Virus genome (UHGV): UHGV-0207574
Reading direction: 5' to 3' (one strand)
Length of the DNA stretch: 16,650 bases
Source of the DNA: a virus
How positions within the stretch are numbered: the first letter of the stretch is position 1; every line of letters starts with the position of its first letter. The translations under genes and the position numbers were made by a program. The notes under the pieces are model-generated. The model was given only the letters and a program-made list of their open reading frames with translations, was not told the origin of the DNA and did not search any database. Positions 1,104 to 14,762 of this stretch are shown here, one piece after another.

Positions 1104-1119
1104 ATGGTGTCCCCTGCAG
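1104..1119. repeat. att-right core (direct repeat of the argW 3' end)
   Basis: ATGGTGTCCCCTGCAG is identical to 13679-13694; flanking sequence diverges immediately on both sides. Confidence 0.8.
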
Positions 1120-1176: not shown

Positions 1177-1198
1177 TATTTTACCCGCTATTTTACCC
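1177..1198 (+). repeat. Two direct copies of TATTTTACCC (1177-1186, 1189-1198) next to att-right and the torI 3' end; candidate recombination-protein binding sites
   Basis: Seen directly. The same octamer (as GGGTAAAA / TTTTACCC) recurs three times beside the integrase start at the other prophage end (13519-13563). Confidence 0.4.
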
Positions 1199-1393
1199 AT
1201 TGGCGCGGCTTAAGAGCTTATTTTTGAATTCACAATGGTCACGATATAACCATCTTGCTCGCCCGTGGATAACTTTGGCTTTTGGTAGGTCGCCGGACTT
1301 AATCCGGTCGTAGATGAAGGTTTTACCAAAGCCAGTATCGGCCATGATGAATTTCAAATCAACCAGTGAATCAGGCTGTAGTTCGTGTTGCAT
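1193..1393 (-). CDS. torI: Excisionase / recombination directionality factor TorI (also described as an inhibitor of the Tor response regulator)
   Basis: 66-aa ORF MQHELQPDSLVDLKFIMADTGFGKTFIYDRIKSGDLPKAKVIHGRARWLYRDHCEFKNKLLSRANG, a winged-helix Xis/AlpA-like small protein. Matches my recollection of KplE1 TorI. Sits next to att-right. Confidence 0.85.
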   Translation of the reverse strand: MQHELQPDSLVDLKFIMADTGFGKTFIYDRIKSGDLPKAKVIHGRARWLYRDHCEFKNKLLSRANG

Positions 1394-3066: not shown

Positions 3067-3946
3067 CGTGTTCACCCTCACGAACTTTCAGGTAGGTATT
3101 GTCGTTAAGCAGGAAATCAAATCCCTTTTTGTGCCAGACGGTTCCGCGTTGATGGTTTGGGCGTTCTTCGAACATCCATCGGCAATTTTCGCCTACGTAG
3201 ATCAAATAATTTCTCCAGTCCTGCATCGTGAACCCATGCCCGTCAAGCTGGCGGGTTATCACTCCGGCTTTGCGCCAGAACGTTCGGATCTGGTTTTTAC
3301 GCTTGTCATTCAGTGCGCGGATTCTTGGCGCTTCAGGAAGGATTTCGTGGTAAGCATCGACAACATCCTGACAGCTGACGGAAGGTTTTTTCTTGTCAGA
3401 CTTTTTGTCTGCTGTGGCACTCTCTAATACGTCAGTATTAGAGATATTATTTATATTATTGTTTATGGACAACCGTTGGACAACCGTTGGACAATCTCCG
3501 CTGAGAGCCGCGCCATTACTGGTGTTTGCGTTGGACAACCGTTGGACAACCGTTGGACAATTTTTTGCCTGAAAATCGTCATATTTAACGATTGTAAACA
3601 GGCTAAATTTCTTCCCCATCGAGCAAATATTAAGCATCCCTTTCGACTCAAAAGTCCGTAATAAGCTCCGAACTTTGTTGTCGGGGATGAATGTTTCTCT
3701 GACCAGCGACGGGCGTCCAGTTATCATCTGACCGCGATCAACAGTTATCGGACCGATATCCGTATTGACGACAGTAGATTCGTGATTAGCCTTGAGGATT
3801 AAGTGAAGCCAAAGATGTACTGCCTGAGAGTCCTTATAGAGCCTGCTGTCCATAAACTGGCGGTGTATAGAGACATACCCCATACTGGATGCCTCCTGAT
3901 GTTGTACAGGGTTATGCCTGTAATCAGCTAACTTAACGACGCCCAT
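3056..3946 (-). CDS. Replication initiator, lambda O-like, with the origin iterons inside the gene
   Basis: 296-aa ORF with an N-terminal region resembling the phage O origin-binding domain (HLWLHLILKANHES...). A central linker is encoded by tandem 11-bp repeats, giving the duplicated peptide CPTVVQRLSN. Translationally coupled to the downstream gene. Confidence 0.7.
   Translation of the reverse strand: MGVVKLADYRHNPVQHQEASSMGYVSIHRQFMDSRLYKDSQAVHLWLHLILKANHESTVVNTDIGPITVDRGQMITGRPSLVRETFIPDNKVRSLLRTFESKGMLNICSMGKKFSLFTIVKYDDFQAKNCPTVVQRLSNANTSNGAALSGDCPTVVQRLSINNNINNISNTDVLESATADKKSDKKKPSVSCQDVVDAYHEILPEAPRIRALNDKRKNQIRTFWRKAGVITRQLDGHGFTMQDWRNYLIYVGENCRWMFEERPNHQRGTVWHKKGFDFLLNDNTYLKVREGEHDDR
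3465..3560. repeat. Putative replication origin: six iterons (unit TTGGACAACCG) in two clusters of three (3465-3496, 3531-3560)
   Basis: Direct tandem repeats seen in the sequence, lying inside the O-like gene as lambda ori lies inside O. Next to them in the gene's direction is an AT-rich tract (3440-3464) and a perfect 9-bp inverted repeat CTCTAATAC-GTCA-GTATTAGAG (3422-3443). Confidence 0.7.
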
Positions 3947-12360: not shown

Positions 12361-13518
12361 TCACTCCACCTTCTCATCAAGCCAGTCCGCCCACCATTGC
12401 ATCATTTCTCTGCGTTTATCGAGATACTGAGCATGGTTGTAAATCCCACGCACAGATCCGCCGTTTGCATGTGCCAGTTGCACTTCAATAGCGTCAGCAG
12501 GCCATTCGTGCTCGTTCATAATCGTGCTGAATTCATGCCTGAATCCGTGACCGCTTTCCAGACCCTCATAGCCGATTTGTTTGATCACAAGCAGTACCGC
12601 GTTCTCGCAGATTGGCTTCTTCTTATCGTTGCGCCCGGCAAAAACAAACTCTGAGACTGGTTTGGTGATGGAGCTTAGCGTAGTGAGAAGTTCAACTACC
12701 TGGTCTGACATAGGAACCACATGAATTTTGCGTCCTTTCATCACACTGGCGTCGATGGTGATAATCCTATTTTCAAAATCGACGTTCTTCCATAGCATGG
12801 AACGAAGCTCTTTCGTTCTTAGGGCTGTGTAGCGTAAAACTTTGGTCGCAATGAGCGATACGATACTTCCTGAAAATGTTGCCAGTGCTTTGTTGAATGC
12901 CGGGATCTGGTCTGCAGGAAGAAACGGGAAGTTCTTCTTGCGGTATCCCTTCATGGCGTCAGCAAGGTCAGGTGCCGGGTTATATTTAGCCCTTCCGGTG
13001 ACAATAGCGTAACGGAAAACCTCGCCGCATCTTCTGCGTGCTTTGTTGGCTCGTTCCATTGCACCGCGATCTTCAAACCTGCGGATTACTTCCAGCAGTT
13101 GCATCGGCTCAATATCCTGAATTTCAAGGCCGCCAATGATAGGTAAAATGTCGTCGTCAAACATTTTGGCAAGTTCAGTTGCATACCCTACTGACCATAC
13201 TTGCTTCTTGTGCTCGTACCATTCCTTGTAAATCGCACTAAAGGAATTGTTGTTAGACGAAGCCTTTTTCGCCTTTACAGGATCGATGCCAACCGAGATG
13301 TCTTTCCTCGCAGTCCATGCTTTATCCCTTGCCTCCTGCAAAGTCATAAGCGGATATTTTCCGACGGTCAGGATTTTCTCCTTACCGTCAATCTTGTAGC
13401 GAAGCTGCCATACCTTTTTCCCTGACACAGGGACATAAAGGTACAGGCCATTACCATCGAGAAGGCGGTATGGTTTTTCTTTCGGCTTTGCTGCTTCAAT
13501 CTGCTTAACGGTGAGCAT
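12361..13518 (-). CDS. intS: Tyrosine-family site-specific integrase (IntS-like)
   Basis: From the ATG at 13518 (MLTVKQIEAAKPKEKPYRLLDGNGLYLYV...) the protein has a P4-type integrase N-terminus and a C-terminal catalytic domain (...HGFRHEFSTIMNEH...GIYNHAQYL). The ORF track starts at an upstream GTG at 13554. Adjacent to the tRNA. Confidence 0.85.
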   Translation of the reverse strand: MLTVKQIEAAKPKEKPYRLLDGNGLYLYVPVSGKKVWQLRYKIDGKEKILTVGKYPLMTLQEARDKAWTARKDISVGIDPVKAKKASSNNNSFSAIYKEWYEHKKQVWSVGYATELAKMFDDDILPIIGGLEIQDIEPMQLLEVIRRFEDRGAMERANKARRRCGEVFRYAIVTGRAKYNPAPDLADAMKGYRKKNFPFLPADQIPAFNKALATFSGSIVSLIATKVLRYTALRTKELRSMLWKNVDFENRIITIDASVMKGRKIHVVPMSDQVVELLTTLSSITKPVSEFVFAGRNDKKKPICENAVLLVIKQIGYEGLESGHGFRHEFSTIMNEHEWPADAIEVQLAHANGGSVRGIYNHAQYLDKRREMMQWWADWLDEKVE

Positions 13519-13563
13519 GGGTAAAAATCCGGTGGGTAAAATTATTTTATCCACTTTTTACCC
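13519..13563. repeat. Octamer repeats GGGTAAAA (13519-13526, 13534-13541) and inverted TTTTTACCC (13555-13563) at the integrase 5' end; candidate arm-type or RDF binding sites
   Basis: Seen directly. The same motif occurs twice next to att-right (1177-1198). Confidence 0.4.
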
Positions 13564-13678
13564 GTCATGGAGTGCGGCTGTCAACGATCTGAAGCGAACC
13601 ATGACGAACTGTAAATCTACGGAATGCTTGATATTCAGGGGATTTTGCGGACTGGTACGGATGGGAGCGAACTGATAA

Positions 13679-13694
13679 ATGGTGTCCCCTGCAG
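13679..13694. repeat. att-left core overlapping the 3' end of argW
   Basis: ATGGTGTCCCCTGCAG, identical to 1104-1119. Confidence 0.8.
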
Positions 13695-13754
13695 GAATCG
13701 AACCTGCAATTAGCCCTTAGGAGGGGCTCGTTATATCCATTTAACTAAGAGGAC
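13680..13754 (-). tRNA. argW: tRNA-Arg (anticodon CCU)
   Basis: Minus-strand 75-nt sequence GTCCTCTTAGTTAAATGGATATAACGAGCCCCTCCTAAGGGCTAATTGCAGGTTCGATTCCTGCAGGGGACACCA. It has the acceptor stem, an anticodon loop CU-CCU-AA, a GGTTCGATTCC T-arm and an encoded CCA end. Confidence 0.9.
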
Positions 13755-13765
13755 AATGCGGCATG

Positions 13766-13794
13766 AGTATACCCGCTAATGGAGTGCGGGGTAA
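13766..13794 (-). promoter_or_regulatory. Putative argW promoter (-35 TTACCC, 17-bp spacer, -10 TATACT)
   Basis: Minus-strand hexamers ~12 nt upstream of the mature tRNA 5' end, followed by a GC-rich discriminator. Weak -35 element. Confidence 0.3.
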
Positions 13795-13829
13795 GTACGC
13801 TGCCGCTCGATTGCTTAAACCCTCGCCAT

Positions 13830-14762
13830 TTATGCCGGGTTTTTATAATTTTTCTTAATGTTTTCCGCACGTTCTGCTTTTTGGCGTGCTTCTGCTTTAC
13901 GCTTATTGCTCATGTCGTTACGAATCTGTGCATGACTCATTAACGCGAAGATAAAGGTGCCGCCGCAGATGTTCCCCGCTAAAGTAGGTAGTGCGAAGGG
14001 CCAGATGAAATCGCTCCAGTGCAGCGTACCGTTAAACACCAGATAGAGGATTTCAACAGAACCGACCACGATATGGGTGGTGTCACCCAGGGCAATAAGC
14101 CAGGTCATCAATATAATCACCACAATCTTTGCCGCACCCGCTGCAGGAAACATCCAAACCATAGTGGCGATCAGCCAGCCGGAAATGATCGCGTTGGCAA
14201 ACATCTCGCTGGGGGTGTTCTTCATCACATCCATGCCGATTTTGACAAATGCATCGCGAGTTTCTTCATTGAAGATAGGCATATATTCAAATGCCCACGC
14301 CGCAATACCTGTCCCGAGAATATTACCCAGCAGCACGACGCCCCATAACCGTATAAGTAAGCCGACGTTGCTCATTGTCGGTTTTTGCATGACGGGTAGT
14401 ACCGCAGTCACGGTATTTTCGGTAAATAATTGCTGGCGGGCCATAATGACGATAATAAAACCAAAGGTATAACCGAGATTCTCCAGCAAGAAGCTGCCCG
14501 GCACACCTTCCAGTTCGACTTGAAATATCCCTTTTGCCAGTAACGAAGCGCCCATCGACAGACCCGCCGCAATGGCTGACCACAGTAGCGCCATTGCGTC
14601 GCGTTCCAGCTCTTTTTCACCATCCTGGCGGATATGCTCATGAATTGCCATCGCCCGGGAGGGGAGTCGGTCTTCATCTATTTCTATTTTTTTGCCGCGC
14701 TCTTTTTCTTCGCTCTCAACTTCAATTTCGTCGCTGTGTTGATCAATTTTGTCGTTGTCCAT
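13830..14762 (-). CDS. yfdC: Formate/nitrite transporter (FNT) family inner-membrane protein
   Basis: 310-aa ORF with an acidic N-terminal extension followed by a polytopic membrane core. Matches my recollection of E. coli YfdC in size and position next to argW. Confidence 0.8.
   Translation of the reverse strand: MDNDKIDQHSDEIEVESEEKERGKKIEIDEDRLPSRAMAIHEHIRQDGEKELERDAMALLWSAIAAGLSMGASLLAKGIFQVELEGVPGSFLLENLGYTFGFIIVIMARQQLFTENTVTAVLPVMQKPTMSNVGLLIRLWGVVLLGNILGTGIAAWAFEYMPIFNEETRDAFVKIGMDVMKNTPSEMFANAIISGWLIATMVWMFPAAGAAKIVVIILMTWLIALGDTTHIVVGSVEILYLVFNGTLHWSDFIWPFALPTLAGNICGGTFIFALMSHAQIRNDMSNKRKAEARQKAERAENIKKNYKNPA

Follow-up and report, generated by a model that had tools for sequence, protein, structure and literature searches.

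The imperfect direct repeat that brackets the tRNA gene argW in the DNA analysed here (UHGV virus genome UHGV-0207574, a stretch of 16,650 nucleotides referred to as the window) coincides with the -35/-10 spacers of two sigma-70 promoters, the phage-borne promoter of intS and the putative chromosomal promoter of argW, and the likeness of these two independent spacers is most likely fortuitous. This reading is favored because the ends of the phage spacer are conserved within its phage family and the host spacer is lineage-specific and polymorphic. The two copies have separate origins, one in the phage and one in the chromosome, both are polymorphic and they do not co-vary; as the cause of their likeness we infer chance. 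Capture of a tRNA promoter, mimicry of it or the binding of a common factor is not supported. If the repeat were functional, a prophage promoter and the promoter of the target tRNA would share a control element, which would be a direct link between lysogeny and a rare-codon tRNA. The outcome is negative: neither a part of the attachment site, nor a captured tRNA promoter, nor a regulatory motif should be seen in this repeat.

Organization of the argW locus and its prophage

The window represents the argW locus of the E. coli K-12 type with the KplE1/CPS-53 prophage, in reverse orientation. Positions 13520-13900 are 100% identical to K-12-type genomes as judged by megablast, and the annotated neighbours there are tRNA-Arg, yfdC and intS. 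Along the minus strand yfdC is followed by copy 2 of the repeat, argW with the attL core at its end and the P' arm containing copy 1, and then by intS, the prophage, torI, the attR core and the dsdC side. The tRNA gene argW, a tRNA-Arg(CCT) on the minus strand (13680..13754), is the sole tRNA found by ARAGORN and scores 63.4 bits with the Rfam tRNA model. In the Rfam search of the window the tRNA stands alone, the other listed match reaching 24.8 bits compared to a gathering score of 65.7. The integrase gene intS encodes 385 amino acids on the minus strand (12361..13518, ATG at 13518) and carries this name in RefSeq E. coli records. The gene torI (1393..1193, minus strand) is located between the prophage body and the attR core, and the chromosomal gene yfdC (13830..14762, minus strand), an open reading frame that is also annotated in RefSeq, is located upstream of argW.

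The attachment core is a 16-nt direct repeat, ATGGTGTCCCCTGCAG on the plus strand, with its attL copy at 13679..13694 and its attR copy at 1104..1119; it is the core sequence quoted for KplE1/CPS-53 of E. coli K-12 (PMC2951348). Att core repeats at tRNA genes are likewise short direct repeats close to a tRNA gene and an integrase gene. Unlike them, the copies of the repeat studied here straddle argW at the attL end, and the chromosomal copy exists also without the prophage. An att-site duplication or extended att homology was considered as a candidate and rejected, as both copies are found at the attL end and the true core lies elsewhere, flanking the whole prophage. This agrees with the earlier note on this DNA, which had placed the copies on opposite sides of the att core and had argued against extended att homology.

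Extent and statistical weight of the repeat

The repeat reported in the earlier note upstream of intS and of argW is present at the positions given there. It had been described as 16 identities in 18 positions with one small gap; the gapped repeat is real, and the best local alignment is slightly longer and better. On the minus strand CCGCACTCCATGA-CGGGTA (13577..13559, copy 1) aligns with CCGCACTCCATTAGCGGGTA (13789..13770, copy 2) with 18 identities, one mismatch and one gap, and on the plus strand the same alignment pairs TACCCG-TCATGGAGTGCGG (13559-13577) with TACCCGCTAATGGAGTGCGG (13770-13789) over 20 columns including a one-base gap. The copies are directly oriented, 211 bp apart and positioned one on each side of argW. 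Inside the repeat they share an exact 11-mer, CCGCACTCCAT on the minus strand, which is absent elsewhere in the window; a search of the whole window for this 11-mer with up to one mismatch gave two matches compared to 0.23 expected. Local alignment of the two 180-bp regions around the copies revealed no homology past the 20 columns.

When the two 180-bp blocks were shuffled 3000 times, an equally good alignment arose twice; among 4870 pairs of blocks drawn at random from the window, 11 gave one. Extrapolated from the random-pair rate to roughly 4300 block pairs, about 10 equally good direct repeats are expected anywhere in the 16.6-kb window, and about 0.2-0.4 with both copies within 300 bp of one another. 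As a catch from the entire window the repeat is therefore marginal. The picture differs if the two promoter spacers are specified and compared in register: for the K-12 allele this yields p ~1.5e-5, compared to 1.6e-4 for the commonest host allele sampled, 1e-3 for B2 strains and 5e-3 for Escherichia sp. E1V33, and the in-register comparison of the E. whittamii argW spacer with the phage spacer shows no excess over chance. The likeness to the phage spacer climbs accordingly, from 10 of 20 positions in E. whittamii to 13 in E1V33, 14 in B2 strains and 16 in K-12, a trend that could stem from directional change instead of a random walk. Beyond the conserved ends of the spacer, also the middle of the E. 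coli phage spacer, TCCATGA, resembles that of the E. coli host spacer, TCCATTA.

Both spacers contain a short inverted repeat CCGC-N9/10-GCGG. Folded as single-stranded DNA, the argW hairpin (-5.3 kcal/mol, z = -2.1) is marginally better than shuffled sequences and the hairpin of the intS promoter (-3.5 kcal/mol, z = -0.5) is no better than shuffled sequences. A structured RNA or DNA element was rejected as a candidate, since Rfam gives the tRNA only and folding adds nothing.

The phage-borne copy and the intS promoter

Located in the P' arm of attL, copy 1 (13559..13577, minus strand CCGCACTCCATGACGGGTA) is phage-derived and corresponds to the spacer of PintS, the intS promoter, which was described as part of the attL module of KplE1/CPS-53 and is the same in HK620 and Sf6 (PMC2951348). 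The start sites of intS were mapped by primer extension, and the promoter was given as TTGACA / TAaAAa (Panis 2010, PMC2951348). All elements of the published arrangement are recovered in the window: both boxes, the mapped starts, P'1 overlying the -10 box and, upstream of the -35 box, the TorI sites I3-I5. The -35 box TTGACA (13579..13584), which is invariant in the alignment of the IntS family, and the -10 box TAAAAA (13555..13560), which is overlapped by the IntS arm-type site P'1, are both located on the minus strand (sequence and PMC2951348). Copy 1 covers the 18-bp spacer between the two boxes minus its first base and then enters the TA of the -10 box. The mapped start sites, T at 13549 and A at 13548 on the minus strand, were placed in the window by counting from the intS ATG; both residues, as well as the 7 nt between the A and the -10 box, agree with this placement. 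Copy 1 ends 11 nt upstream of the mapped start (PMC2951348), so that the nearness to a transcription start, which had been proposed as a check of the repeat, is borne out for this copy. It thus has the position of a sigma-70 spacer, in the arrangement TTGACA, 18 bp and TAAAAA upstream of a mapped start site, and this start is downstream of an alternative GTG at 13554. A simple promoter scan missed both promoters. PintS was not listed by it because TAAAAA lacks the final T, and the sole listing, ATGACG-16-AATAAT, is at odds with the mapped intS start.

PintS is repressed by IntS and TorI, and IntS binding was reported for the P' arm (PMC2951348). As in other lambda-like tyrosine recombinases, the integrase uses arm-type sites, for IntS with the sequence GGGTAAA, and copy 1 ends in one of these, as the first five bases, GGGTA, of the P'1 core (13557..13563, minus strand) form the 3' end of the copy (-10 overlap according to PMC2951348). 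Copy 1 carries CGGGTAAAAA, which corresponds to P'1 and matches the arm-type motif GGGTAAA(A) including TAAA. This TAAA is present in all P' sites and was mutated by Panis et al. to study the binding of IntS to the arm (PMC2951348). GGGTAAA occurs nine times in the window compared to 1.9 expected, and five of these form the cluster of the att arms (13519-13525 and 13534-13540 on the plus strand; 13557-13563, 1180-1186 and 1192-1198 on the minus strand). The binding-site block I3-I5 of the recombination directionality factor (RDF) TorI (13585..13609, minus strand) has motifs as published (PMC2951348) and positions read from the sequence: GTTCG at 13609..13605, GTTCG at 13599..13595 and GATCG at 13589..13585. 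These sites abut the -35 box of PintS on its upstream side and are clear of the repeat. Apart from its P'1 end, the spacer itself is assigned to no binding protein, and a keyword search of the study revealed no mention of a resemblance between PintS and the argW promoter (PMC2951348).

The chromosomal copy and the putative argW promoter

Copy 2 (13770..13789, minus strand CCGCACTCCATTAGCGGGTA) is chromosomal and would be the spacer, together with the TA of the -10 box, of an argW promoter TTACCC-N17-TATACT. The putative -10 box TATACT (13766..13771, minus strand) stops 11 nt short of the 5' end of the mature tRNA. The candidate -35 box TTACCC (13789..13794, minus strand), located 17 bp from the -10 box, matches the consensus in three of six positions and is predicted from its sequence. 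The promoter is a well-supported prediction because TATACT is kept at a fixed distance from the first nucleotide of the tRNA in eight genera (Escherichia, Citrobacter, Kluyvera, Dryocola, Serratia, Xenorhabdus, Pantoea and Izhakiella). In the -35 region CTTAC or CTTAA is kept at the same place across genera. The literature on the argW start site yielded no usable experimental start. With copy 1 in PintS, each copy would thus correspond to the region between the two boxes of a promoter and reach two bases into the -10 box, and the suggestion that both copies lie in promoter regions holds, for argW with a predicted promoter.

The putative argW promoter resembles other bacterial tRNA promoters in its conserved -10 box, its G+C-rich discriminator CATGCCGC and its position near the mature 5' end, features that are typical of stable RNA promoters. 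Such promoters are known to be controlled through the discriminator, the UP element and Fis sites, not through the spacer, and PintS has none of these control elements in common with argW. The two promoters are unlike in their hexamers (TTGACA/TAAAAA for PintS vs. TTACCC/TATACT for argW), in their discriminators and in their flanks, and their likeness stops exactly at the bounds of the spacer. The end of copy 2, GCGGGTA, matches the first five of the seven nucleotides of the arm-type site, and the argW sequence TAGCGGGTA shows a 9-nt identity to the P-arm site at 1184-1192 (minus strand TAGCGGGTAAAA). However, copy 2 reads GCGGGTATAC, in which TATA replaces the TAAA of the arm-type sites. It is located outside the P and P' arms and the phage-derived DNA and is not conserved in other genera that carry the same phage family.

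Distribution and variation of the two copies

The free phages HK620, Sf6, IME10 and HK633 carry the P' arm with copy 1 in their attP with 96-99% identity, and Erwinia, Klebsiella and Salmonella phages carry it with 69-78% identity. A scan with IntS using one genome per species revealed prophages beside tRNA-Arg(CCT) in about 15 enterobacterial genera. The integrase promoters of this family follow a common plan composed of TTGACA, GCCGCA(C), a variable stretch of 7-8 nt and (G)CGGGTAAA, with CGGGTAAA being the arm-type site P'1. This plan is kept in IntS-family phages and prophages of Erwinia, Klebsiella, Citrobacter, Dryocola, Pantoea, Edwardsiella, Rouxiella, Serratia, Tatumella, Xenorhabdus and Rosenbergiella. 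The phage-type spacer motif is found in IntS-family prophages of at least ten (about 15) genera and the host motif is confined to Escherichia. The middle of the phage spacer is variable: at the position of the central T of the 11-mer the prophage copies of E. coli have T, A, C or G. The variant CCGCACTCC occurs also in prophages of Serratia fonticola and Xenorhabdus hominickii, and the presence of CCGCACTCC in the phage is thus explained by descent within the phage family.

A side observation concerns the arm site over the -10 box. In the last 98 nt before the integrase ATG (loci L014-L036) the argW integrases fall into two sub-families, one with GGGTAAA and the -10 box TAAAAA, and one with GGGCAT and CATATT, the latter in Kluyvera, Pantoea alvi and piersonii, Izhakiella, Serratia silvae, X. 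budapestensis and the Salmonella phage S.Inf 5-2. The layout with an arm site over the -10 box is kept across argW integrases even with its sequence changed.

On the host side, the copy upstream of argW was found in all 5426 complete E. coli genomes analysed, among these empty-site strains, and the KplE1-type P' arm in 1720-1893 of the 5426. The earlier note had proposed to look at argW loci lacking the prophage, and the tRNA-side copy is present there. In the empty site of strain ET82 (dsdC-argW-yfdC) the argW promoter is identical to the one in the window; copy 2 is kept there upstream of the tRNA, 75-95 bp from the core, and copy 1, being part of the phage P' arm, is missing. In an ST131 strain whose site is likewise empty, the argW copy reads CCGTAGTCCAT, with two changes. 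As it is present in all genomes and intact at empty sites, the host copy is chromosomal. A phage origin of the tRNA-side copy was rejected as a candidate, in view of its presence in all 5426 genomes and of flanks that are homologous to Kluyvera and Citrobacter.

The host copy is also polymorphic. A 34-mer of the K-12 sequence is present exactly in 1794 of the 5426 genomes (33%), with one mismatch in 2553, with two or three in 1040 and with more in 39. The commonest host allele sampled reads CCGCAGTCCAT. All alleles that were read vary inside the 11-mer, with CAGTCC (apparently the commonest), TAGTCC, CTGACC, CTGAGC, CTGCCC and CAGTAC, and so does the E. whittamii argW allele CTGTTTAA. By the change from the commonest CAG to the K-12-type CAC a match of 10 of 11 positions becomes the exact 11-mer; this exact match is thus an allele of a third of the genomes and one base away from the commonest sampled. 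Outside Escherichia the argW spacers contain an A-tract, e.g., GTTGAGAGTAAAAAACGC in Citrobacter. As this A-tract common to other genera is lost, the Escherichia argW spacer must have been remodelled at some point; its flanks are 70-78% identical to Kluyvera, as counted from the sequences.

Phage and host copies do not co-vary, because the phage-type ends are kept in Citrobacter, Dryocola, Serratia, Xenorhabdus, Kluyvera and Pantoea, where the host argW spacers are unrelated. Outside Escherichia the spacers of a host and its own prophage score 5-12 of 20, no better than mismatched pairs, and host and phage alleles combine freely among 31 E. coli lysogens taken from IMG/VR. This IMG/VR scan with IntS yielded integrases with 99-100% identity only, presumably of E. 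coli prophages, and informs about the pairing of alleles, not about diversity. The K-12 allele is present in 15 of the 31 lysogens compared to 33% of the RefSeq genomes, a weak difference as the two samplings are not comparable. Mimicry of the host promoter is therefore not a property of the phage family, since own pairs score no better and alleles pair freely. On the basis of this host-versus-phage spacer matrix, the idea that the phage generally mimics the tRNA promoter of its host was rejected.

Origin of the resemblance

The analysis leads to the following explanation, which we consider probable. The copies would be the -35/-10 spacers of the phage-borne intS promoter and of the chromosomal argW promoter in the same orientation; neither copy would descend from the other, and integration would not have created them. 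The phage spacer is conserved within the family at its ends, GCCGCAC beside the -35 box and CGGGTAAA (P'1) over the -10 box, and free to vary in its middle. The Escherichia argW spacer, being lineage-specific and polymorphic, would by chance start with CCGC and end with GCGGGTA. The likeness would be inflated by the TA with which both -10 boxes start and by a single substitution in the K-12 lineage (CAC for CAG), and the repeat would need no function.

Three minority explanations are kept because the in-register match is improbable, the middles of the spacers are alike and the Escherichia spacer was remodelled; none of them has positive support beyond the similarity itself. A short-patch templated change, by gene conversion or template switching between the copies 211 bp apart, could have sharpened a weak initial resemblance in the E. 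coli lineage. Such a process would fit host alleles that differ by clusters of adjacent substitutions within the 11-mer (CTGAC, CAGTC, CACTC), a likeness to the phage copy that grows towards E. coli proper and a spacer that is remodelled compared to the A-tract genera between flanks still alignable with Kluyvera, and the phage copy adjoins argW in 1893 of the 5426 genomes. However, in no genome do both copies share a derived variant, the alleles pair freely in the 31 lysogens, the K-12 allele is found unaltered in a strain with an empty site and a non-matching allele in lysogens, flanking homology to support conversion is absent, and descent within the phage family accounts for CCGCACTCC on the phage side. 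A templated change is accordingly regarded as unlikely. Common descent, in which either the phage captured an argW-type promoter or phage DNA replaced the Escherichia argW spacer so that the repeat is a relic of homology, faces the difficulty that phage and chromosome are not collinear, the minus strand having T-arm piece, torI, core and copy 1 in the phage and copy 2, T-arm and core in the chromosome. The flanks of the Escherichia spacer are homologous to Kluyvera and Citrobacter on both sides, which would confine any replacement to about 13 nt, the distribution of the motifs is unequal (phage motif in at least ten genera, host motif in Escherichia only), and hexamers and discriminators are unrelated. 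That the match is in register within two promoters, that mobile DNA can replace the argW promoter, as done by a second prophage in O157:H7 that brings its own, and that the phage bears a 16-nt sequence of the argW T-arm upstream of torI all speak for this explanation, to which we give a small probability. The proposal of the earlier note that intS captured or mimics the context of a tRNA promoter is not supported, in view of the different hexamers and discriminators and of the unrelated argW spacers of other genera.

The other proposal in that note, a binding site for a common factor, would require either a degenerate IntS arm-type site at argW (GCGGGTATA compared to the consensus GGGTAAA) or a site CCGCAC...CGGG for another factor; through such a site the prophage could sense argW, repress it or make the tRNA promoter part of the attL intasome. 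The P'1 site at the 3' end of copy 1, the 9-nt match between TAGCGGGTA at argW and TAGCGGGTAAAA in the P arm and the inverted repeat CCGC-N9/10-GCGG, present in both spacers and in many family members, would be in line with it. On the other hand, argW has TATA in place of the TAAA common to all P' sites, the host site varies within E. coli and is absent at argW of other genera hosting the same phage family, and neither the left box nor the middle is constant in either copy. Moreover, the inverted repeat is lost in the prophages of Xenorhabdus, Rosenbergiella and T. saanichensis and weakened in KplE1, and single-strand folding is marginal for argW and gives nothing for PintS. That the centre is polymorphic in both copies speaks against a site bound by a common factor, all four bases being found at one central position of the phage copy. 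With a polymorphic host 11-mer, a variable phage centre and no likeness of host and phage outside Escherichia, the pattern differs from that of a conserved shared cis-site, and a common factor is judged improbable. Very unlikely is a combined scenario, in which the Escherichia argW promoter evolved or was converted towards the IntS-family spacer and acquired a weak arm-like site TAGCGGGTA over the -10 box and a CCGCAC box that a phage of the KplE1/HK620/Sf6 type could bind. If it were true, phage binding at the argW promoter could tie the supply of the rare AGG-decoding tRNA to the state of the prophage or could aid assembly of the attL intasome.

Further observations at argW loci

The T-arm sequence found in the phage is GGAATCGAACCTGCAA at 1413-1428, just upstream of the torI ATG (1393, minus strand), and equals the argW T-arm at 13694-13709. 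In the tRNA gene this segment abuts the 16-nt core, and in the phage 293 bp (torI and the P arm) intervene. A GGAATCGAACCTGCAA-type motif is also present in locus L004 at 1149-1164 and in locus L005 at 1143-1171. In HK620 the same 16-mer is located within a promoter annotated as cII-dependent 'phage integration' promoter, and the Erwinia phage Midgardsormr38 has two tandem copies of GGAATCGAACCTG. Because the motif contains GTTCG, the motif of the TorI sites, the T-arm-like 16-mer may be a site for an RDF or regulator that resembles a tRNA T-loop rather than a relic of a tRNA.

The second prophage at argW, which is unrelated to the first, is integrated in the first 24 nt of the gene (core GTCCTCTTAGTTAAATGGATATAA), and its integrase gene points away from the tRNA. 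This prophage was seen in E. coli O157:H7 Z903 (locus L002, 3236-3460) and in O145:H28 RM13514 (locus L003, 2850-3005). As this prophage integrates in the first 24 nt of argW, the gene is flanked by prophages on both sides in O157:H7. The native argW promoter is swapped for a phage-borne TTGATT-N17-TATTAT without CCGCACTCCAT. Furthermore, comparison of the 60 nt upstream of tRNA-Arg(CCT) at the loci L017, L018, L019, L021, L025, L027 and L033 showed that a CGGTAGGATAG(A)AAC-like sequence replaces the TATACT promoter upstream of argW in Pantoea stewartii, Edwardsiella, Tatumella, Pantoea latae and Erwinia tracheiphila. This suggests that in CGGTAGGATAG-type genomes another mobile element supplies the upstream region of the tRNA.

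Finally, inside the prophage, positions 3466-3572 contain two clusters of the 11-bp tandem repeat TGGACAACCGT, arranged as five register-shifted copies of a 30-nt unit, and these clusters look like iterated binding sites.
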